Positions 2,583-12,750 of a stretch of DNA of 32,038 bases are shown piece after piece. The translations under genes and the position numbers were made by a program. The notes under the pieces were generated by a model. It saw only the letters and a program-made list of their open reading frames with translations, had not been told where the DNA came from and searched no databases. The stretch is from a virus. Its lineage: Duplodnaviria > Heunggongvirae > Uroviricota > Caudoviricetes. The stretch is taken from positions 1 to 32,038 of the IMG/VR virus record IMGVR_UViG_2778261509_000010, one strand, 5' to 3'. Position 1 is the stretch's first letter; every line of letters begins with the position of its first letter.

Positions 2583-3079
2583 CAGTGATGACGCTCAATC
2601 TCGTTGAAAAACAGCCAGCAACTATGCGCCGGATAATTGGTAAGCATCTGGCCGTCCCTCGCTGGCAGGAGACATGCGATTATTATAATCAGATGATGGA
2701 ACGCGAACGGCTAACGGTTTGCTTTCATGCGCAGTTAAAACAGCGTCACGCAACGATGCGTTTTGAAGAAATGAACGACGTCGAACGTGAACGACTGGTT
2801 TGTGCAATTGATGAATTGCGTGGGGCATTCTCAAAACGCCGTCAGGTTGGCGCAAGTGAGTATGCATATATTAGTTTTTTAACAGTCAGTCAGCGCCGTA
2901 CTTTATTTATGCACGCACGACTGACAGAAAAAGAATTTAACCAGCCATACTGGCGAATTAATGAGGAATCATGTTACTGGCGTGATGCTTTATTCCGTGC
3001 ATTACGTGAATTATTCAGTCTGTTTGAGTATGCACCGACAATTCTGACATCGGTAAAACCAGAGCAATATCTGCATTAA
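2579..3079 (+). CDS. B: Replication protein B (helicase-loader-like, 166 aa)
   Basis: Position between cox and A; ATG at 2579 is better spaced from GGAGG (2566-2570) than the ATG at 2573. Confidence 0.8.
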   Translation: MTVMTLNLVEKQPATMRRIIGKHLAVPRWQETCDYYNQMMERERLTVCFHAQLKQRHATMRFEEMNDVERERLVCAIDELRGAFSKRRQVGASEYAYISFLTVSQRRTLFMHARLTEKEFNQPYWRINEESCYWRDALFRALRELFSLFEYAPTILTSVKPEQYLH

Positions 3080-3142
3080 GTAATTAACCAGAGTTTTTAA
3101 CGCACTTAATTGTGCGGGGCTTCTTTTTGCCTGGAGAAAGTC

Positions 3143-3367
3143 ATGCATACAGTTTCTGAAAATCAGTGCGGTAAATACGCATTACTGCTGCAACAGGCCA
3201 GAACCGAAGCACAGGCCGATGCAGCGACGCGCTTTTCTTCTCATCTTGACGCCATGATTCACCACATCACAAAGGCGGAGTTATCCAGCGTGGAGATAGT
3301 CGAGCTGCTCAGTCAGGAGTCGGAAAAATTTCACAATATCGGATTGTCTCGCGGGGAGGTGCTTTGA
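3143..3367 (+). CDS. Small early hypothetical protein (orf80-like position)
   Basis: ATG at 3143 with GGAGA Shine-Dalgarno; the ORF-track start at 3110 is a TTG. Confidence 0.5.
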
Positions 3368-3669
3368 TGTCCTGTTCTCGTTCGGTTGTATTACTGAATA
3401 ACGCCTTAAAAATCGCCGTTATGAAAAATGGCGATTTATCTCTTATTCAACTTGGTCTTGATAAAGAAAAACGCGAAATAACTGAGTCTGTTATCGCGAT
3501 TTATCAGAATGAATTAAATCTCCTGTCTGATGTGGTCAATTTACTTGTTAAACGCGCTGTATTTCACAAGCAAATCTCCTCCGTGGATGAACTGACGAAA
3601 TTAACGACAGAAATTGCCAGCTATTGCGCTGATGAATTTAAAAAACTTAACGACAAAAGGAGCTGGTAA
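3367..3669 (+). CDS. Small early hypothetical protein (orf81-like position)
   Basis: ATG at 3367 after a GGGGAGGTG Shine-Dalgarno; translationally coupled neighbours. Confidence 0.5.
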   Translation: MSCSRSVVLLNNALKIAVMKNGDLSLIQLGLDKEKREITESVIAIYQNELNLLSDVVNLLVKRAVFHKQISSVDELTKLTTEIASYCADEFKKLNDKRSW

Positions 3670-3893
3670 TGCCGGACAACGTAGATTTTATTCAGGAACA
3701 ACAGGCTGAATTACTGGAGCGTCAGATTAACGCGGCAAGGGTAAAACATTGCGGTGCTTCTGCGCTGGTTTGCGAAGAGTGTTACGCGCCAATATCTGCT
3801 GCCCGTCGTGCGGCTTATCCGTCAGCCACGCGTTGTGTTTCCTGTCAGTCAGTCTTTGAAGCAAAAAACAAACATTACCGGAGAACGGCATGA
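3669..3893 (+). CDS. TraR/DksA-family C4 zinc-finger protein (74 aa)
   Basis: Cys pairs CEEC...CVSC with the typical spacing of the DksA/TraR zinc finger; start overlaps the upstream stop (TAATG). Confidence 0.7.
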   Translation: MPDNVDFIQEQQAELLERQINAARVKHCGASALVCEECYAPISAARRAAYPSATRCVSCQSVFEAKNKHYRRTA

Positions 3894-4165
3894 GTATTCG
3901 TATTGAAATTGGCGAACGTTATGTCGTTACCAGTGACAGCTTTCAGTTTATTCTCCACGAGAAAAAGAGAGCGGAAAGCGGTAAAAACGCCGGTCAGGAA
4001 TGGCTGGCAGTGGTTGGTTATTACCCGAAATTAAGCCAGCTCGTTTCCGGCCTGATGCATCACGATATTCTGACCGGAAGCGCAAAGTCTTTTGCTGATT
4101 TAAACGCGCAGGTTGAGCAACTCAGCAGGCGTTGTTCAGAGGCTTTTGGCTCATATGGCCGTTAA
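3890..4165 (+). CDS. Small early hypothetical protein (orf83-like position)
   Basis: ATG at 3890 with GGAGA Shine-Dalgarno; overlaps the start of A. Confidence 0.5.
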   Translation: MSIRIEIGERYVVTSDSFQFILHEKKRAESGKNAGQEWLAVVGYYPKLSQLVSGLMHHDILTGSAKSFADLNAQVEQLSRRCSEAFGSYGR

Positions 4166-6455
4166 AGCCTCCGGGCGTTTTGTCCCTCCGTCAGCATTTG
4201 TTGCAGGCACCGGTAAGGCGTTTACCGGTGCTTATGCATGGAACGCGCCACGCGAGGCTGTCGGGCGCGAAAGACCCCTTACACGTGACGAGATGCGTCA
4301 GGTGCAAGGTGTTTTATCCACGATTAACCGCCTGCCTTACTTTTTGCGCTCGCTGTTTACTTCACGCTATGACTACATCCGGCGCAATAAAAGCCCGGTG
4401 CACGGGTTTTATTTCCTCACATCCACTTTTCAGCGTCGTTTATGGCCGCGCATTGAGCGTGTGAATCAGCGCCATGAAATGAACACCGACGCGTCGTTGC
4501 TGTTTCTGGCAGAGCGTGACCACTATGCGCGCCTGCCGGGAATGAATGACAAGGAGCTGAAAAAGTTTGCCGCCCGTATTTCATCGCAGCTTTTCATGAT
4601 GTATGAGGAACTCAGCGATGCCTGGGTGGATGCGCATGGCGAAAAAGAATCGCTGTTTACGGATGAGGCGCAGGCTCACCTCTATGGTCATGTTGCTGGC
4701 GCTGCACGTGCTTTCAATATTTCCCCTCTCTACTGGAAAAAATACCGTAAAGGACAGATGACCACGAGGCAGGCATATTCTGCCATTGCCCGTCTGTTTA
4801 ACGATGAGTGGTGGACTCATCAGCTTAAAGGCCAGCGTATGCGCTGGCATGAGGCGTTACTGATTGCTGTCGGGGAGGTGAATAAAGACCGTTCTCCTTA
4901 TGCCAGTAAACATGCCATTCGTGATGTGCGTGCACGCCGCCAGGCAAATCTGGAATTTCTTAAATCGTGTGACCTTGAAAACAGGGAAACCGGCGAGCGC
5001 ATCGACCTTATCAGTAAGGTGATGGGCAGTATTTCTAATCCTGAAATTCGCCGGATGGAGCTGATGAACACCATTGCCGGTATTGAGCGTTACGCCGCCG
5101 CAGAGGGTGATGTGGGGATGTTTATCACGCTGACCACGCCGTCAAAGTATCACCCGACACGTCAGGTCGGAAAAGGCGAAAGTAAAACCGTCCAGCTTAA
5201 TCACGGCTGGAATGATGAGGCATTTAATCCAAAGGATGCGCAGCGTTATCTCTGCCGTATCTGGAGCCTGATGCGCACGGCATTCAAGGATAATGATTTA
5301 CAGGTCTACGGTTTGCGTGTCGTCGAGCCACACCACGACGGAACGCCGCACTGGCATATGATGCTTTTTTGTAATCCACGCCAGCGTAACCAGATTATCG
5401 AAATCATGCGTCGCTATGCGCTCAAAGAGGATGGCGACGAAAGAGGAGCCGCGCGAAACCGTTTTCAGGCGAAACACCTTAACCGGGGCGGTGCTGCGGG
5501 GTATATCGCGAAATACATCTCAAAAAATATCGACGGATATGCACTGGATGGTCAGCTCGATAATGATACCGGCAGACCGCTGAAAGACACTGCCGCGGCT
5601 GTTACCGCATGGGCGTCAACGTGGCGCATCCCGCAATTTAAAACGGTTGGTCTGCCGACAATGGGGGCTTACCGTGAACTACGCAAATTGCCTCGCGGCG
5701 TCAGCATTGCTGATGAGTTTGACGAGCGCGTCGAGGCTGCACGCGCCGCCGCAGACAGTGGTGATTTTGCGTTGTATATCAGCGCGCAGGGTGGGGCAAA
5801 TGTCCCGCGCGATTGTCAGACTGTCAGGGTCGCCCGTAGCCCGTCGGATGACGTTAACGAGTATGAGGAAGAAGTCGAGAGAGTGGTCGGCATTTACGCG
5901 CCGCATCTCGGCGCGCGTCATATTCATATCACCAGAACGACGGACTGGCGCATTGTGCCGAAAGTTCCGGTCGTTGAGCCTTTGACTTTAAAAAGCGGCA
6001 TCGCCGCGCCTCGGAGTCCTGTCAATAACTGTGGAAAGCTCACCGATGGTGATACTTCGTTACCGGCTCCCACACCTTCTGAACACGCCGCAGCAGTGCT
6101 TAATCTGGTTGATGACGGTGTTATCGAATGGAGTGACCCGGAGGTTGTGAGGGCGCTCAGAGGTGCATTAAAATGCGGACTGAGAACACCAAATCGTCAG
6201 CAAAGAAACGGAAGTCCGTTAAAACCGCATGAAATAGCGCCATCAGCCAGGCTGACCAGGTCGGAACGATTGCAAATTACCCGTATTCGCGTTGATCTTG
6301 CTCAGAACGGTATCAGACCTCAGCGATGGGAGCTTGAGTCGCTGGCGCGTGGGGCAACCGTAAATTATGACGGGAAAAAATTCACGTATCCGGTCGCTGA
6401 TGAGTGGCCGGGATATTCAACTATAACAGAGTGGAATCAATTTGATGACGGGTAA
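4155..6455 (+). CDS. A: Rolling-circle replication initiator A (HUH endonuclease)
   Basis: HUH-like motif PHWHMMLF and paired tyrosines in AGYIAKYISKNIDGY; ATG at 4155 preferred (the ORF-track start at 4113 is a TTG). Confidence 0.9.
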   Translation: MAVKASGRFVPPSAFVAGTGKAFTGAYAWNAPREAVGRERPLTRDEMRQVQGVLSTINRLPYFLRSLFTSRYDYIRRNKSPVHGFYFLTSTFQRRLWPRIERVNQRHEMNTDASLLFLAERDHYARLPGMNDKELKKFAARISSQLFMMYEELSDAWVDAHGEKESLFTDEAQAHLYGHVAGAARAFNISPLYWKKYRKGQMTTRQAYSAIARLFNDEWWTHQLKGQRMRWHEALLIAVGEVNKDRSPYASKHAIRDVRARRQANLEFLKSCDLENRETGERIDLISKVMGSISNPEIRRMELMNTIAGIERYAAAEGDVGMFITLTTPSKYHPTRQVGKGESKTVQLNHGWNDEAFNPKDAQRYLCRIWSLMRTAFKDNDLQVYGLRVVEPHHDGTPHWHMMLFCNPRQRNQIIEIMRRYALKEDGDERGAARNRFQAKHLNRGGAAGYIAKYISKNIDGYALDGQLDNDTGRPLKDTAAAVTAWASTWRIPQFKTVGLPTMGAYRELRKLPRGVSIADEFDERVEAARAAADSGDFALYISAQGGANVPRDCQTVRVARSPSDDVNEYEEEVERVVGIYAPHLGARHIHITRTTDWRIVPKVPVVEPLTLKSGIAAPRSPVNNCGKLTDGDTSLPAPTPSEHAAAVLNLVDDGVIEWSDPEVVRALRGALKCGLRTPNRQQRNGSPLKPHEIAPSARLTRSERLQITRIRVDLAQNGIRPQRWELESLARGATVNYDGKKFTYPVADEWPGYSTITEWNQFDDG

Positions 6456-6597
6456 TCGAATGGAATGATCCGGCGGTCGTGAGGGCGCTCAGAGGTGCAT
6501 TAAAACACGGTCTGAGAATACCAAATCGTCAGCAAAGAAACGGAAGTCCGTTAAAACCGCTTGCATTTGTGCCATCGCGAGGCTGATCAAATCAGGT
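6455..6597. repeat. Decayed direct duplicate of the A gene 3' region (copy of about 6123-6260)
   Basis: Long near-identical runs (GTGAGGGCGCTCAGAGGTGCATTAAAA; CCAAATCGTCAGCAAAGAAACGGAAGTCCGTTAAAACCGC) repeated immediately after the A stop codon. Confidence 0.75.
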
Positions 6598-6684
6598 TTG
6601 TGATAAATTACTAGTATTTATATAGACCTCGCTCAGTATGGCATCACACAGAAGTAATGTAAGCGTGGGGGGCGTGGTGTACCA

Positions 6685-6713
6685 TTGATATACGACGGTC
6701 GAAAATTTACATA
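6685..6713 (+). promoter_or_regulatory. Candidate sigma70 promoter for the cargo membrane gene
   Basis: TTGATA, 17-nt spacer, TACATA upstream of the 6729-7361 ORF; by eye only. Confidence 0.3.
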
Positions 6714-6872
6714 GCCGATTTCCTGTGATTGGTTTTCGTTATGCACTCTTTTCTGAAGAGATTAACTACTGATAGACTCAGGTTGGATGTCAGAATCGCT
6801 ATAGATTTCTTGCTATATATGTATTTTTCAATGAAAATGATCTCTGATTTAAACTGTAGTAAGGTGATTGGT

Positions 6873-7361
6873 ATGGATGGTTTATGGGAAAAAATATCGT
6901 CATATAATATATTTAATAATCTTTTTCCAGGTGCTCTTTTTATTTATCTTCTTGAGAGAATGACGAAGATCGTTTTATCTGGCGATGATTTAATAAAAAA
7001 TGTTGTCCTCTATTATTTTGTTGGCTTAGTCATTGGCCGGATTGGTTCTATCGTATTGGAACCTTTTTTAAAACTATCGCGTTTGATTAAGTTTGCTCCT
7101 TATAAAGATTATGTGTCAGCATGTGGTGTGGATGGAAAAATTGAAACTTTGCAAGAGATTGCGAATATGTATAGGACGATATTTTCAATGTCAATTATTC
7201 TTTTGGCGACATTGTGCGTTGTAGGACGGTTTACTGGCGAGACATATGGCTTATCTAAAATAACGTTGGCGGTTTTTGCTATTTTGTTTGTTGTCTCATA
7301 TATTAAACAAATAAGATACATAATATATAGAGTAAATGCTGTTAATAATAAGCTGCCGTAA
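6873..7361 (+). CDS. Multi-pass inner-membrane protein, cargo gene (about 4 TM segments)
   Basis: ATG at 6873 with AAGGTG Shine-Dalgarno 6 nt upstream; ORF is open from a TTG at 6729 (ATG at 6741 also possible). Hydrophobic segments FPGALFIYLL, VVLYYFVGLVIGRIGSIVL, IFSMSIILLATLCVVG, ITLAVFAILFVVSYI; strongly AT-rich. Confidence 0.6.
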   Translation: MDGLWEKISSYNIFNNLFPGALFIYLLERMTKIVLSGDDLIKNVVLYYFVGLVIGRIGSIVLEPFLKLSRLIKFAPYKDYVSACGVDGKIETLQEIANMYRTIFSMSIILLATLCVVGRFTGETYGLSKITLAVFAILFVVSYIKQIRYIIYRVNAVNNKLP

Positions 7362-7371
7362 GGCAGCTTTT
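7351..7371. terminator. Bidirectional intrinsic terminator between convergent cargo genes
   Basis: Hairpin AGCTGCC-GTAA-GGCAGCT overlapping the plus-gene stop, followed by TTTT on plus and an AT-rich tract on minus. Confidence 0.5.
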
Positions 7372-7374
7372 GAA

Positions 7375-8466
7375 TTATTCTTCGGTTCTATAGTTACTAA
7401 TGTATGATCGTGGAGTGGCTGTTTTCCATCCTGCCCTTTCAGGAGCATTATAAAAATGGTACTTACCAAGCCCCTCGGTGGCGATAACTTTCGCTCCTCG
7501 TCGAGTAAAGGCATTAATTACAGCTTGATGGGGATGTTTATCTGAACCTGGGGCACATGATACAAATGCGGTTATCTCCCTTTTTTCGCCTTCATTTACA
7601 ATGTTACCAACAAGTTTATCGAGAACATCAGGGCCTACATTTCTCCGGCTACCATGATGAGGTACTTGAATGAATCTTAATGATTCTTTATTAATGTATT
7701 GGGAGGCTTGATCTAAGGCTGTTATACCAGCATCGCCAGTGAACACTAACGTTCTTCCATCAATCTCAAGTTTCAAAATGACACTTGAGTTATTTTGTGC
7801 CGAGGTGGTATCGTCATTATCAATACCTTCATCAGTAAACCATTCAGCAACGTAATCAATAAATTTCTTCGTTTTTTCAACTACAGACTCAAAGACTGCT
7901 TTTAGTACTTCAAATCCAGCTGTATCCTCAGCTTTTTTGGGCATTCTTGCGAAATCAGGTATTAGAGTCTCATAGTAAGATTGGGTTGGCCCGATAACAA
8001 CCAGAGTAGCATTATCCCAGGTCATTCCTTGAAAAGGCTCTTTTATTTCAATTCCTTTTTTTTCCGCTAATTTGACAGCGTCATAAGCTTTTTGTAAGTT
8101 TTCTTTCATTCGATTTGCAATACTGGCATCAGTTATCCTGCCATCTGCAAACTCACTTGCGAGACCTTGATTATGTTCCCAAGGCTTATGAATCCAAAAC
8201 TCTTTTACTTCTGCATTTTCTAGAACAGATGTAAGTCCACCGACGTGGTCACCATCGGGGTGTGTGGAGATAAGCAAGTCAATAGTTTTTGTGCGGTAGT
8301 ATTTTTCAATATGCTCAATGACTTGTTCTCCGGTGCTGGCATATCCTGCATCAATAACGACAACTTTTTGTTCATCTCTTGAACCATGTAGGTTTCCCCA
8401 TCTGATGCAGATCGCATCGCCGCTTTTTTTTTCGCCAACAGCTAGAAAATCAATTTCGTAACCCAT
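7375..8466 (-). CDS. ComEC-like metallo-beta-lactamase-fold hydrolase (putative nuclease), cargo gene (363 aa)
   Basis: MBL motifs STHPDGDHVGG (residues ~67-77), VPHHGS and KHPH, resembling the ComEC C-terminal / Lactamase_B_2 pattern; ATG at 8466 with AAGGA Shine-Dalgarno; AT-rich. Confidence 0.8.
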   Translation of the reverse strand: MGYEIDFLAVGEKKSGDAICIRWGNLHGSRDEQKVVVIDAGYASTGEQVIEHIEKYYRTKTIDLLISTHPDGDHVGGLTSVLENAEVKEFWIHKPWEHNQGLASEFADGRITDASIANRMKENLQKAYDAVKLAEKKGIEIKEPFQGMTWDNATLVVIGPTQSYYETLIPDFARMPKKAEDTAGFEVLKAVFESVVEKTKKFIDYVAEWFTDEGIDNDDTTSAQNNSSVILKLEIDGRTLVFTGDAGITALDQASQYINKESLRFIQVPHHGSRRNVGPDVLDKLVGNIVNEGEKREITAFVSCAPGSDKHPHQAVINAFTRRGAKVIATEGLGKYHFYNAPERAGWKTATPRSYISNYRTEE

Positions 8467-8628
8467 TCCATATCCTTATTAAACTGTGAATTAACATGAA
8501 TCCAAGATGTTAAATCATATGGATAATAACGCAACTTTTCCGCAGTAAATACTGTGAGCGGATTTAATCTCGTCAGAACTAAAAGCAAGTAGTGTGACGA
8601 GGGACAATGAGTCTCTTTGGGGCGTTGG

Positions 8629-9168
8629 CTATGACACTGACGCAACCAGATTAACGCCGTGAGTCAGCAGATTTGTAATCACACCGGCAATGACCCCAGG
8701 AGTCCCATCTTTCACCGCACTGATCACTTTATCCCCCATCGTTTCATTTCCACCAAGCACCTCGGGTTTTTTGTTAAGAACTGTGAGCGCTTTTTCAGTA
8801 AGTCGAACATCGTAAAAATACGACTGATGGTCTGTGTTGTACTGAATGTACCCGTTTTCACAGAGAAAATTGAATGTACCTTCAACCACACTACGCAACT
8901 GATTTAACACTTTCATTTCTGGTGAGTTAAGTTGGTCAAAGTAGTCATCAGGTAGCGCGGCGTTAAATTTGTCGTAGTTAATCACCTGTGGTACGGGAAA
9001 ATTTTCCCATAGTACTGCAAAGATTTCCGCCGTTTGTTGGTTAAATAAATCGAGATTTTTCGACATGCAAAATTCCATTTCTTTTGATAATGAGTGGGTT
9101 AAACGCTGGACGAGGCAGATTACCACTCTGGCACAAAACAATGATCTTAGTTCACGCGAAGTTGACAT
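8629..9168 (-). CDS. Hypothetical cargo protein with Gly-rich hydrophobic C-terminus (start uncertain, 145-179 aa)
   Basis: ORF open from ATG at 9168; alternative ATG at 9066 (MSKNLDLF...). C-terminal GTPGVIAGVITNLLTHGVNLVASVS looks like a membrane-interacting tail. No family recognised. Confidence 0.55.
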   Translation of the reverse strand: MSTSRELRSLFCARVVICLVQRLTHSLSKEMEFCMSKNLDLFNQQTAEIFAVLWENFPVPQVINYDKFNAALPDDYFDQLNSPEMKVLNQLRSVVEGTFNFLCENGYIQYNTDHQSYFYDVRLTEKALTVLNKKPEVLGGNETMGDKVISAVKDGTPGVIAGVITNLLTHGVNLVASVS

Positions 9169-9259
9169 ATATACCGATAAGCTGGTTGCGCAGGCAACTA
9201 GCGTAGAACTCGCTCAGGTCATCAAGATGCTATTGAATTATATTCGAATGCACAAATAA
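9065..9259 (+). CDS. Possible small protein (64 aa), divergent from and overlapping the minus-strand cargo ORF
   Basis: ATG-initiated ORF; a plus-strand intrinsic terminator lies downstream at 9399-9425; no obvious Shine-Dalgarno. Conflicts with the 5' extension of the 8629-9168 ORF. Confidence 0.25.
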   Translation: MQNSISFDNEWVKRWTRQITTLAQNNDLSSREVDIYTDKLVAQATSVELAQVIKMLLNYIRMHK

Positions 9260-9398
9260 AATGATCTGTATCAATCTGTTAGGTGTCGTTTGTAAAAATG
9301 TGTGGACACGATTGTTCTGCTAATTGTTGTCAACATGTGCGTCAACAGTGAGATTGGTGCATTGCGCGGCCAGTGACAACTTTAAAAATTGGCCAAAA

Positions 9399-9425
9399 CC
9401 GGCACTATGAATGCCGTTTTTTTTG
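9399..9425 (+). terminator. Intrinsic terminator (plus strand)
   Basis: Stem CGGCA / TGCCG with 7-nt loop followed by T8 (9417-9424). Confidence 0.5.
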
Positions 9426-9582
9426 TGTTTTTTTCTGCGATACTCCTATTTTTAGCAGTGCATGCAATATGTGCGTGGTTTTGCATGTGCCTAAGTTGCA
9501 TGTTCTGGCTGTGCACCGTCAGGACGGACGCCCCTCAAAAGTGGTAATGCACCTGCATTAAAACCGACCTATGAAGCGGGCG

Positions 9583-9601
9583 GGCGAGGCGGGGAAAGCA
9601 C
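9583..9601. other. cos: cos-like cohesive-end sequence (GGCGAGGCGGGGAAAGCAC)
   Basis: 19-mer identical to the P2 cohesive-end sequence as I recall it; correct position between the cargo region and Q. Confidence 0.6.
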
Positions 9602-9743
9602 TGCGCGCTGGCGGTGGTGCTGATTTTATTTTTTCAGCGTCTCAGCGCGTCGTGACGGCGCTTAGTCTACCCGTTGTGGTGTTGGTGTGTCTGCGGGGTG
9701 TTTTGTGCGGTGGTGAGCGTGTGAGGGCGTGATGACGGGATGT

Positions 9744-9766
9744 AAAAAAGCCGCCCGCAGGCGGCG
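9744..9766 (-). terminator. Intrinsic terminator after Q (minus strand)
   Basis: GCCGCC-TGCG-GGCGGC hairpin followed by a T-run on the minus strand, immediately downstream of the Q stop. Confidence 0.6.
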
Positions 9767-9770
9767 ATGT

Positions 9771-10805
9771 TCAGCCGTTGTCAGTGTCCAGTGAGTAGTT
9801 TTTAAAGCGGATGACATCCTGACCGAGCCAGCCGTTTATTTCCCGAATCCTGTCCTGTAACGGGATAAGCTCATTGCGGACAAAGACCTTTGCCACTTTC
9901 TCAATATCTCCCAGCGACCCGACATTCTCCGGCTTGCCGCCCATCAACTGAAAGGGGATGCGGTGCGCGTCCAGCAGGTCAGCGGCGCTGGCTTTTTTGA
10001 TATTAAAAAAATCGTCTTTCGTCGCCACTTCACTGAGCGGGATAATTTTAATGCCGTCGGCTTTTCCCTGCGGGGCGTAGAGAAACAGATTTTTAAAGTT
10101 GTTGCGGCCTTTCGACTTAACCATGTTTTCGCGAAGCATTTCGATATCGTTGCGATCCTGCACGGCATCGGTGACGTACATGATGTATCCGGCATGTGCG
10201 CCGTTTTCGTAATACTTGCGGCGGAACAGCGTGGCCGATTCATTCAGCCAGGCAGAGTTAAGGGCGCTGAGATATTCCGGCAGGCCGTACAGCTCCTGAT
10301 TAATATCCGGCTCCAGCAGGTGAAACACGGAACCGGGCGCGAAGGCTGTCGGCTCGTTGAAGGACGGCACCCACCAGTAAACATCCTCTTCCACACCACG
10401 GCGGGTATATTTTGCCGGTGAGGTTTCCAGTCTGATGACTTTACCGGTAGTGCTGTAACGCTTTTCCAGAAACGCATTACCGAACACCAGAAAATCCAGC
10501 ACAAAGCGGCTGAAATCCTGCTGGGAAAGCCACGGATGCGGGATAAATGTCGAGGCCAGAATATTACGTTTGACGTAAATCGGTGAGCTGTGATGCACGG
10601 CAGCACGCAGGCTTTTTGCCAGACCGGTAAAGCTGACCGGTGGCTCATACCATCTGCCGTTACTGATGCACTCGACGTAATCCAGAATGTCACGGCGGTC
10701 GAGTACCGGCACCGGCTCACCAAAGGTGAATGCCTCCATTTTCGGGGCGCTGGCGGTCATTGTTTTTGCCGCAGGTTGCGGTGTTTTCCCTTTTTTCTTG
10801 CTCAT
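9771..10805 (-). CDS. Q: Portal protein (344 aa)
   Basis: Position and size; start overlaps the P stop (ATGA). Confidence 0.9.
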   Translation of the reverse strand: MSKKKGKTPQPAAKTMTASAPKMEAFTFGEPVPVLDRRDILDYVECISNGRWYEPPVSFTGLAKSLRAAVHHSSPIYVKRNILASTFIPHPWLSQQDFSRFVLDFLVFGNAFLEKRYSTTGKVIRLETSPAKYTRRGVEEDVYWWVPSFNEPTAFAPGSVFHLLEPDINQELYGLPEYLSALNSAWLNESATLFRRKYYENGAHAGYIMYVTDAVQDRNDIEMLRENMVKSKGRNNFKNLFLYAPQGKADGIKIIPLSEVATKDDFFNIKKASAADLLDAHRIPFQLMGGKPENVGSLGDIEKVAKVFVRNELIPLQDRIREINGWLGQDVIRFKNYSLDTDNG

Positions 10806-12577
10806 CAGTAAAACTCCAGAATGGTGGATGTCAGCGGGGTGCTGATACCGGCGGTGAGTGGCTCATTTAACAGGGCGTGCATGGTCGCCCAGGCGAGGTC
10901 GGCGTGGCTGGCTTCCTCGCTGCGGCTGGCCTCATAGGTGGCACTGCGTCCGCTGCTGGTCATGGTCTTGCGGATAGCCATAAACGAGCTGGTGATGTCG
11001 GTGGCGCTGACGTCATATTCCAGACAGCCACGGCGGATAACGTCTTTTGCCTTGAGCACCATTGCGGTTTTCATTTCCGGCGTGTAGCGGATATCGCGCG
11101 CGGCGGGATAGAACGAGCGCACGAGCTGGAACACGCCGACACCGAGGCCGGTGGCATCAATACCGATGTATTCGACGTTATATTTTTCGGTGAGTTTGCG
11201 GATGGATTCAGCCTGAGTGGCAAAGTCCATGCCTTTCCACTGGTGACGCTCAAGTATTCTGAATTTGCCACCGGCCACCACCGGCGGTGCCAGCACCACG
11301 CATCCGGCGCTGTCGCCACGGTGTGACGGGTCGTAACCAATCCATACCGGGCGGGAACCGAACGGATTTGCGGCAAAGGGTGCATAGTCTTCCCATTCTT
11401 CCAGCGTGTCGACCATGCAGCGTTGCAGCTCCTCGAACGGGAACACCGACGCCTTGTCGTCAACAAATTCACACATGAACAGGTTTTTAAAATCGTCGGC
11501 GCTGTTTTCGCGTTTGAGCTGCTCAATGTCGAACAGCGTGCAGCCACCTTTCAGGGCGTCCTCAATGGTGACAATCTGCCGCCACTGGCCGTCCGCACAG
11601 AGAAGACCACCGGCAAGGGCGTTATGACTGACGTCGATTTCCACGCGTTCGGCGGCGCTGGCGCGTCCCCGGTTGAACAGTTCACCTGACCAGAACGGGT
11701 AGGCGTCGTGCGCCAGCGTGGACGGGGTGGAGAAATAGGTCGAGCGCAGGTGACTCTGTGAGGCCATACCTGATGCTACCTTACGCAGTACCTGAAAATT
11801 CGGAATCCAGAAAATCTCGTCGACGTACAGGTCGCCGTTATGGCTCTGTGCGGTGTTGGAGTTGGTGCCGAGAAAAATCAGTTTTGCACCGTTATTGCCC
11901 AGGACAATCGGGTCACCGGTCAGGTCAACGTCAACCAGCCGGGCAAAGGCAATGATGTATTCGCGGAACACATACGCCTGCGTTTTACTGGCCGACAGAA
12001 AAATCTGGTTATGGCCGGTTTTCAGGGCGCGCAGCAGCGCCTCGCGGGAAAAATAAAACGTCGCGCCAATCTGGCGGGATTTCAGGATATCGCGGATGCG
12101 GTGCTCAAGCCCGGCGCGATACCAGTGCAACTGATAGTCGAAAGACTGCTCAAAGAAAATCTGCTCCAGCTTTTCGATGGCCTCGTCACTGAAAAAATTC
12201 TTTTTCGGTTTGCGACGCCCGCCTTTGTTGCGGTTAGCGACGTTCGGATTAAGGTCTGCTTCGTTGCCGGTCTGGCTGTAGCGGTTTACCCGTGCCAGTC
12301 GTTCAATCTGGCGTCCGAGCAGGTCAATTTCCTTGAAGTCACCGCCGGTTTTCTGCGGTTTGATGATGAGCTGAGTCAGCCGCGCTTCCAGACTCATTTC
12401 GACACGGCTGATGGGGGCAACGCTGTCCCAGCCGTCGCGCTGTTTCCAGCTCTGCACCGTCGGGCGTTTCATCTGCAACATGGCGGCAATCTGCGGCACG
12501 GAAAACCCCTGCCAGTACAGCAGCGCCGCCTGACGACGCGGGTCGTGTAAAAGAGTGGTGTCTGTGGTGATGGTCAT
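10805..12577 (-). CDS. P: Terminase large (ATPase) subunit (590 aa)
   Basis: ATG at 12577 (MTITTDTTLL...) with GAGGT Shine-Dalgarno; the ORF-track start at 12607 adds 10 codons. Confidence 0.9.
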   Translation of the reverse strand: MTITTDTTLLHDPRRQAALLYWQGFSVPQIAAMLQMKRPTVQSWKQRDGWDSVAPISRVEMSLEARLTQLIIKPQKTGGDFKEIDLLGRQIERLARVNRYSQTGNEADLNPNVANRNKGGRRKPKKNFFSDEAIEKLEQIFFEQSFDYQLHWYRAGLEHRIRDILKSRQIGATFYFSREALLRALKTGHNQIFLSASKTQAYVFREYIIAFARLVDVDLTGDPIVLGNNGAKLIFLGTNSNTAQSHNGDLYVDEIFWIPNFQVLRKVASGMASQSHLRSTYFSTPSTLAHDAYPFWSGELFNRGRASAAERVEIDVSHNALAGGLLCADGQWRQIVTIEDALKGGCTLFDIEQLKRENSADDFKNLFMCEFVDDKASVFPFEELQRCMVDTLEEWEDYAPFAANPFGSRPVWIGYDPSHRGDSAGCVVLAPPVVAGGKFRILERHQWKGMDFATQAESIRKLTEKYNVEYIGIDATGLGVGVFQLVRSFYPAARDIRYTPEMKTAMVLKAKDVIRRGCLEYDVSATDITSSFMAIRKTMTSSGRSATYEASRSEEASHADLAWATMHALLNEPLTAGISTPLTSTILEFY

Positions 12578-12750
12578 GAATACCTCGCCGTGATGAATAC
12601 ACGGCAAGGCTACTGAGTCGCGCCCCGCGATTCGCTAAGGTGCTGTTGTGTCAGTGATAAGCCATCCGGGACTGATGGCGGAGGATGCGCATCGTCGGGA
12701 AACTGATGCCGACATGTGACTCCTCTAATCACTATTCAGGACTCCTGACA
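12578..12750. promoter_or_regulatory. Divergent late promoter region (P leftward, O rightward)
   Basis: Non-coding region between divergent late operons; no consensus element could be pinned down by eye. Confidence 0.4.

Follow-up and report, generated by a model that had tools for sequence, protein, structure and literature searches.

Two adjacent genes in a P2-like prophage of Escherichia coli, gene A for a small membrane protein and gene B for a metallo-β-lactamase (MBL)-fold enzyme, are components of one conserved module and near-obligate neighbors across phyla. From its composition, distribution and setting we infer that this pair is a candidate superinfection-defense (anti-phage) module encoded by the prophage. 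The DNA analyzed, hereafter the window, comprises positions 1 to 32,038 of IMG/VR record IMGVR_UViG_2778261509_000010 and is a P2-like (Peduovirus) prophage of E. coli. Prophages of this type occur commonly in the species, and what their gpA/Q stretch carries helps determine which other phages can infect the lysogen. The locus has already been catalogued computationally, as PDC-M48 in PADLOC and in Table S5A of Rousset et al. (PMC9122126). New here are the resolved start codon of A, the identification by sequence comparison of the convergence and its hairpin as an Enterobacterales-specific rearrangement of an operon, and a tie between the A family and an effector-like slot of 6A-MBL systems. 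We rate the window pair as a minimal, rearranged form of MBL-based defense.

Genes A and B are near-obligate neighbors across phyla

Relatives of gene A were surveyed with a degenerate-pattern scan using one genome per species, which gave 235 relatives; open reading frames (ORFs) were called in the best 80 loci and searched with iterated profiles. These 80 loci are spread over Bacteroidota, Firmicutes, Proteobacteria, Nitrospirota, Chlamydiae, candidate phyla radiation groups and one Methanosarcinales archaeon. An MBL gene was present in the fetched flank of 77 of them. A was followed by B on the same strand within 100 nt in 51 loci, and the reverse order, again on one strand and within 100 nt, was found in 14. 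Co-directional pairs that abut or overlap therefore account for 65 of the 80 loci, with gaps ranging from -74 to +71 nt, and about half of the 51 A-then-B loci have a 1- or 4-bp overlap or a 3-nt spacing. Both window proteins match the PADLOC PDC-M48 models end to end, and their genes are adjacent.

The convergent arrangement within 100 nt occurred once among the 80 loci, in the enterobacterium Huaxiibacter. It is also the arrangement in the window, where A and B are adjacent and convergent with 13 nt between their stop codons. Targeted look-ups recovered the convergent form in E. coli, phage 12W (73% DNA identity), Pectobacterium, Klebsiella, Enterobacter and Yersinia; every convergent allele seen belongs to Enterobacterales. 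These alleles lie almost always in the P2 hotspot and once in a chromosomal toxin-antitoxin island of Enterobacter kobei. Since a co-directional operon is found in most loci, the convergence is, as judged from gene order, a lineage-specific rearrangement of that operon confined to Enterobacterales, and it does not point to an unrelated function.

In the first ~65 of the 80 loci, the two long ORFs closest to A were classified (118 ORFs). The families matched most often were DNA methylases, AbiLi, AriA-like and AAA_21 ATPases, components of MADS (mad2/3), integrases, ResIII helicases, reverse transcriptases, NERD, Fic, SocA and WYL proteins. The A/B neighborhoods have the make-up of defense islands and mobile elements. 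In one locus (L012, 2873-3769), a WYL-domain regulator gene lies between A and a divergently oriented MBL gene.

Start codon and promoter of gene A

The plus-strand ORF at 6729-7361 encodes 210 residues when read from TTG. An earlier note on this DNA had left three starts open (TTG 6729, ATG 6741 and ATG 6873) and had credited the last of them with the best Shine-Dalgarno sequence. Comparison with homologs favors this candidate: the true start is, on concordant sequence evidence, ATG 6873, giving a coding sequence of 6873-7361 and a protein of 162 residues. ATG 6873 is the start annotated by PGAP in 99.7%-identical E. coli genomes (WP_001752365.1). The PADLOC and PHROG profile matches open at residue 49 of the long ORF, and in nearly all of the best 150 of 1224 family cluster representatives, with a few exceptions, the residues aligned to profile positions 1-4 are among the first 10 of the protein. 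The invariant motif EKISSYNIFN begins 5 residues past Met 6873. The Shine-Dalgarno sequence AAGGTGA (6861-6867, plus strand) ends 5 nt before the ATG, and a purine-rich element at this place is preserved in all convergent alleles. The upstream extension of the ORF is missing from other alleles. TTG 6729 and ATG 6741 are not conserved, lie upstream of a conserved promoter-like site and were discarded.

This predicted sigma-70-type promoter of gene A (6810-6838, plus strand) consists of a -35 element TTGCTA (6810-6815), a 17-nt spacer and a -10 element GAAAAT (6833-6838), and sits within the spurious upstream extension. The two elements recur at equal spacing in the aligned upstream regions of the convergent alleles of phage 12W, Klebsiella, Pectobacterium, Huaxiibacter and Enterobacter; a consensus promoter scan did not list the TTGCTA-N17-GAAAAT site. 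Because gene A has its own conserved promoter-like site and Shine-Dalgarno sequence, A and B would have to be transcribed separately in this arrangement. The independent regulation that had been proposed from the convergence is thus upheld with respect to a separate promoter-like site and separate transcription; it does not extend to functional independence, since the pair is conserved.

Gene A encodes a predicted four-helix inner-membrane protein

The gene A product matches PDC-M48A (model PDLC04670, E 1.7e-50) over profile positions 1-162 of 164, corresponding to residues 49-207 of the long ORF, and phrog_11864 (2.5e-97). Three PDC-M48A models are the only PADLOC models that it matches at E <= 0.1. 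A word-indexed search found 188 homologs, and a profile search found homologs in 1224 clusters at 50% identity, distributed over bacterial phyla and at least one archaeon. Searches with A against Pfam and NCBIfam returned no family, and a Foldseek comparison with viral structures gave nothing below E 0.5. The literature yielded no experimental work on the A family and no supported annotation for it. The name 'phosphohistidine phosphatase', which NCBI gives to A homologs, looks like a propagated naming error: Pfam and NCBIfam detect no histidine-phosphatase/SixA domain in a protein of four membrane helices.

AlphaFold2, run with 86 sequences, modeled A with a pLDDT of 89 and a pTM of 0.82. The model contains four long helices (residues 12-31, 40-68, 89-121 and 126-157) and a short one (77-86); by Kyte-Doolittle hydropathy three segments are strongly hydrophobic and the first helix is weaker. 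The earlier suggestion of a membrane protein with about four hydrophobic helices is in agreement with both analyses. Basic residues are concentrated in the loop 69-88 and the C-terminal tail, which suggests an N-in/C-in topology with very short outside loops; hydropathy and the positive-inside count together predict a membrane-embedded protein in this orientation. The predicted periplasmic loops span residues 32-39 and 122-125, leaving almost no periplasmic exposure. Sixteen positions are invariant or nearly so (K7, S9, S10, Y11, P19, G20, Y48, G51, R56, S59, E63, Y77, R101, F139, K145 and Q146). The conserved polar residues gather on the predicted cytoplasmic face, and the invariant Arg56 lies within the second transmembrane helix.

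Gene B encodes an MBL-fold enzyme of the ComEC-like branch

Gene B (7375-8466, minus strand) encodes a 363-residue MBL-fold metallo-hydrolase of family PDC-M48B, in the ComEC-like phosphodiesterase/nuclease branch. PDC-M48B model PDLC04676 matches residues 3-357 with an E value of 7.4e-101 over profile positions 5-353 of 357; among PADLOC models, weaker partial matches were obtained with LmuA (2.2e-29), RTasMBL (3.1e-20) and Avs1a (2.5e-14). These partial matches indicate that MBL enzymes of this branch recur in defense systems. Lactamase_B is the only Pfam domain in the protein. The metal motif H69-x-D71-x-D73-H74, together with D245 and H270/H271, is invariant in 64 homologs, and a metal site of the nuclease/phosphodiesterase type is, by its residues, intact. 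Conservation at comparable phylogenetic distance is ~52% identity for B versus ~42% for A.

The AlphaFold2 model of B has a pLDDT of 90. The nearest solved structure is the β-lactamase-like domain of ComEC (9ic4; sequence 2.4e-08, Foldseek 3.1e-14, TM 0.75 on the target), followed by a phosphorylcholine esterase as second match, RNase J, a phosphodiesterase and CPSF73-type nucleases. The N-terminus of B, MGYEIDFLAVGEKKSGD, shows by inspection no hydrophobic stretch resembling a signal peptide, and B is for this reason probably cytoplasmic. The MBL domain of ComEC is a metal-dependent DNA nuclease (PMC8579336, PMC12455585), and this β-lactamase-like domain is extracellular (PMC8579336).

Two database names for B were found to be misleading. 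PGAP labels it 'ComEC/Rec2 family competence protein'; B is a homolog of the ComEC domain and not ComEC itself, as TIGR00361 gives 49.2 bits (cut-off 190), confined to the MBL part, and B lacks a membrane domain. The name 'tail protein' is used by PHROG 7043 and by RefSeq record NC_049389.1 (Peduovirus P24E6b); the PHROG match extends over only columns 619-901 of a 1077-column profile. Together with 'phosphohistidine phosphatase' for A, three misleading database names are thereby corrected.

A conserved hairpin lies between the convergent stop codons

A perfect, G+C-rich 8-bp hairpin, AAGCTGCC-GTAA-GGCAGCTT, occupies positions 7350-7369 between the convergent stop codons, with its arms at 7350-7357 (AAGCTGCC) and 7362-7369 (GGCAGCTT) and GTAA as the loop. 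The TAA stop of gene A (7359-7361) is located in the loop, so that the last codons of A, K-L-P-stop, are formed by the 5' arm and the loop; the 3' arm is followed, 5 nt further on, by the MBL stop codon (7375-7377). These coordinates agree with the description in the earlier note of a plus-strand gene ending inside a hairpin just past the MBL stop. That note was right about the existence of the hairpin and its being common to both genes, and its extent of 7351-7368 was one base short at each end. The folding energy is -14 kcal/mol, with z values of -4.05 on the plus strand and -4.74 on the minus strand, and none of 200 shuffled sequences was as stable.

The hairpin is present in every convergent allele examined (L002, L011, L091, L092, L094 and L095/96, and with a different sequence in L101). 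Its core CTGCC/GGCAG is retained in most alleles. Compensatory changes at two stem pairs, AAGCUGCC/GGCAGCUU versus GAACUGCCC/GGGCAGUUC, can be read from the per-allele folds; RNAalifold counted zero compensatory pairs on an alignment in which MAFFT had shifted the 3' arm of the 9-bp variants. The Yersinia hairpin has a wholly different 10-bp stem, GTAAGCCACC/GGTGGCTTAC. This different stem and the compensatory changes indicate that position and structure are conserved rather than sequence. Counting the A-U pairs of the stem, the tails are UUUUGAAUUAUU on the plus strand and UUAUUAUUAA on the minus strand. The hairpin probably acts as a bidirectional intrinsic terminator or as a 3'-end stabilizer common to the two convergent transcripts.

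The A family occupies the third position of 6A-MBL-type loci

Five of the 80 loci (L013, L024, L031, L042 and L060) contain a gene for a ~760-residue E2-E1-JAB fusion (Prok-E2_A, ThiF and Prok-JAB) between the MBL gene and the A-family gene. The L031 fusion scores 536 bits on NF058523, 'anti-phage 6A-MBL system cap2_3 protein' (cut-off 320), and the MBLs of L013 and L031, as well as that of L077, score 356-359 bits on NF058524, '6A-MBL system MBL-fold protein' (cut-off 220). The 6A-MBL system itself is reportedly the work of van den Berg et al. in 2024. Of the 80 loci, 13 have ORFs resembling E2, E1 or JAB proteins, and their order varies. E2/E1/JAB-like genes precede or follow the A-MBL pair in L018 (5669-7765) and L029 (354-2609), and an E2-only gene stands between a 6A-type MBL gene and A in L077 (3312-4004).

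Four loci of more distant Cap2_3 homologs (L097-L100) were also fetched. In three of them the gene after Cap2_3 encodes a protein with multiple transmembrane (TM) helices: 193 residues in L097 (6373-6954), 241 in L099 (6357-7082) and 246 in L100 (6323-7063). These proteins share the motif NAEYGxxRNL and form an unannotated family of 193-246 residues to which no Pfam or NCBIfam model was matched. The family is not detectably related to A, and the L099 protein was rejected as a homolog of A (hhalign probability 0.1%). In L098, the corresponding gene encodes a 433-residue patatin-like phospholipase with hydrophobic segments. Since the A family, other multi-TM proteins and a patatin alternate in this slot, the third position of 6A-MBL loci would, by analogy, be comparable to the effector slot of CBASS and Pycsar operons, which is likewise variable.

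The L098 locus of Pedobacter panaciterrae (2833-9050) is a defense island in which the genes for a 6A-MBL MBL, Cap2_3 and the patatin-like phospholipase are followed by those for a 195-residue membrane protein, a second MBL, of PDC-M48B type, and AbiH. The 195-residue protein bears a faint likeness to A (hhalign E 0.0047, probability 7.5%).

B was rejected as a 6A-MBL enzyme: NF058524 matches it with 33.9 bits (cut-off 220) over residues 49-89 only. A Cap2_3 profile built from five loci, searched against the window ORFs at E <= 1e-5, revealed no E2-E1-JAB gene in the window.

Relationship to known defense systems

PDC-M48 is a computational candidate whose usual form is a co-directional operon, whereas the window holds a form convergent around a hairpin. 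The window pair resembles 6A-MBL in its core MBL-fold enzyme and in the A family standing directly after 6A-MBL gene pairs in 5 of the 80 loci; it differs in having no E2-E1-JAB gene and in the score of B, far below the NF058524 cut-off. The window pair may relate to 6A-MBL much as type I CBASS relates to type II CBASS. 6A-MBL has been listed among known jumbo-phage defenses (2025 preprint).

CBASS and Pycsar systems with transmembrane effectors show the same composition of one enzyme, one small membrane effector and optional Cap2/Cap3-like E2-E1-JAB regulators, and their effector slot is likewise variable and includes patatin phospholipase. In contrast to these systems, the enzyme here is an MBL hydrolase and not a nucleotidyltransferase or cyclase, and A has no recognizable nucleotide-binding domain; PADLOC shows no sequence homology between the window pair and CBASS or Pycsar components. 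B carries the same STHPDxDHxGGL and VPHHGSR motifs as the nuclease domain of ComEC/Rec2, an MBL domain that also works with a membrane domain. However, B lacks the OB and competence (channel) domains of ComEC, and comparison of A with the ComEC membrane domain gave no similarity.

Kiwa (KwaA/KwaB) and Zorya (ZorAB with ZorC/D) each pair a small membrane protein that spans the bilayer several times with a DNA-directed partner in the cytoplasm. The resemblance of the window pair to them is one of layout only; A and B match no PADLOC model of either system. The MBL proteins LmuA of Lamassu, Avs1a of AVAST type 1 and RTasMBL of DRT gave significant partial matches with B, whose Avs1a score of 62 bits lies below a cut-off of 420. 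These MBLs partner SMC-like, STAND or reverse-transcriptase proteins, and not an A-type membrane protein.

Candidate mechanism and alternative explanations

The account we favor, to which we give an even chance of being right, is that A and B constitute a minimal MBL-based defense in which B would be the sensing or catalytic component and A the membrane effector. B would sense infection, generate a trigger, or both, and would switch A on, either by binding it directly or by way of a hydrolysis product; A would then perturb or depolarize the inner membrane, and the infection would be aborted. The hairpin would end both transcripts, stabilize them, or both. If it ends both, the doses of A and B would be set separately, each from its own promoter. 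The earlier note had offered 'membrane sensor or effector' as a role for A, which was the right kind of idea. A bolder generalization, which we put forward tentatively and regard as rather doubtful, is that MBL-based defense makes up a third CBASS/Pycsar-like family in which an MBL hydrolase replaces the cyclase and controls a small membrane effector directly or through a hydrolysis-derived signal, PDC-M48 being its minimal 'type I' form and 6A-MBL its Cap2/Cap3-regulated 'type II' form; the convergent enterobacterial layout would then let the prophage adjust a potentially lethal effector and its activator independently. With the fixed MBL partner and the shared 6A-MBL slot, a concrete, testable hypothesis can be framed about a module that is widespread but unstudied, and the pair offers a simple two-gene E. 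coli model of how MBL-based defense kills or protects.

Several results weigh against this account. The effector role of A is argued from the equivalence of slots in another MBL clade, one related to that of B but distinct from it, and the related MBLs of Lamassu, Avs1 and DRT themselves hold effector positions, which favors B as the effector. A has no recognizable ligand-binding domain or informative structural relative, and no A-B fusion was found among the best 150 A representatives and the best 120 B homologs. The literature searched contained no paper using the name PDC-M48 and no experimental test of it, and Table S2 of PMC9122126 (tested systems), when searched, listed none of the cargo accessions and no lactamase entry. 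As to the hairpin, a terminator scan requiring at least 5 T in 8 did not call it, its T-run being interrupted and a canonical U-run missing, and the plus-strand tail is A-rich in L011 and L095.

The main rival account reverses the roles, with B as a ComEC-like nuclease effector that degrades phage or host DNA and A as its sensor or anchor in the membrane, much as in Zorya, Kiwa or ComEC itself; A might detect phage entry or membrane perturbation, or tether the nuclease to the inner membrane at the site of phage DNA entry. We consider this less likely than the favored account. The nearest characterized relative of B is the ComEC nuclease domain, and its resemblance to LmuA, Avs1a and RTasMBL, all in effector positions, points the same way, as do its invariant catalytic residues and its higher conservation relative to A. 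The invariant polar residues of A lie on the predicted cytoplasmic side, where a docking surface would be expected, and among 6A-MBL models only NF058523 and NF058524 were matched, with no NCBIfam model for the third slot, so an MBL may suffice as effector. On the other side, the 6A-MBL slot of A is interchangeable with a patatin-like phospholipase and unrelated multi-TM proteins, which are typical effectors; the conjugated partner in related Cap2-dependent pathways is termed a signaling enzyme; and the two short periplasmic loops of A leave little surface for sensing from outside.

Two other explanations would remove the pair from defense or separate its members. That A and B are non-defense cargo, either an addiction or toxin-antitoxin-like pair or a membrane-associated machinery for nucleic-acid or phosphodiester processing on behalf of the host or element, appears unlikely. 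It would fit the lack of any experimental validation of PDC-M48 in the literature, the E. kobei allele lying among SymE, HicB and Gp49/HTH toxin-antitoxin genes, one allele in a polysaccharide-synthesis locus and another among conjugative-transposon tra genes, the phosphorylcholine esterase as second-best fold match of B, and the non-defense cargo that the P2 hotspot also holds (PMC9122126). Yet PADLOC lists the pair as a defense candidate, its neighbors across phyla are mostly restriction-modification, Abi, ATPase-nuclease and integrase genes, and it is directly linked to the E2-E1-JAB and MBL genes of 'anti-phage 6A-MBL'. The suggestion in the earlier note that A might be a separate small exclusion gene, sharing a terminator with an unrelated MBL gene, fares worst and is very improbable. 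The convergence and a promoter-like region for each gene in the window would suit it, but the MBL partner in 77 of the 80 loci, co-directional in 65 and usually translationally coupled through 4-bp or 1-bp overlaps, the joint modeling of A and B as PDC-M48, and the travel of the pair together outside P2 as well contradict it.

Genomic setting of the module in the gpA/Q hotspot

The module lies between the gene for the replication endonuclease gpA (gene A of P2; 4113-6455, Phage_GPA 2.5e-123) and the portal gene Q (9771-10805, minus strand), which is followed by the terminase gene (10805-12607, minus strand); the remaining window genes have sizes typical of P2 morphogenesis genes. Rousset et al. 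2022 (PMC9122126) characterized this gpA/Q stretch as a hotspot whose cargo varies and is in large part anti-phage, and the same study reports that non-defense cargo is carried there too. Table S5A of PMC9122126 contains the same cargo, WP_001752367 + WP_001752365 + WP_001752366, described as 'hypothetical + hypothetical + Lactamase_B'. Eighteen complete E. coli genomes contain the 3.3-kb cargo at an identity of at least 99%. Among 5426 such genomes, 23 carry at least 80% of it, and related forms are found across Enterobacterales.

Gene C (8629-9066, minus strand), which shares the strand of the MBL gene and lies upstream of it, encodes 145 residues matching phrog_2266 and no Pfam family. Its long ORF extends to 9168, with a 34-codon 5' extension that is probably spurious. 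Gene C was rejected as a third component of the module: it is found in Klebsiella, Salmonella and E. coli peduoviruses without A and B, and the A/B alleles of Pectobacterium, Klebsiella and Enterobacter lack it. It looks like an independent gene flanking the hotspot. An Rfam scan of 6300-9900 gave a single sub-threshold match, far from the locus.

The 190 nt just 3' of the gpA stop (6456-6645) are ~80% identical to the 3' coding end of the gpA gene in other peduoviruses, reflecting either an early end of gpA here or an original gpA end displaced by cargo insertion. Two strong terminator-like hairpins are located at the right edge of the hotspot. One, CGGCA-N7-TGCCG followed by T8, occupies 9400-9416 on the plus strand. 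The other, GCCGCC-TGCG-GGCGGC followed by T6 (9750-9765, minus strand), comes directly downstream of the portal gene, and its sequence also opens a cloned P2 hotspot insert in Table S2 of Rousset et al. (PMC9122126).

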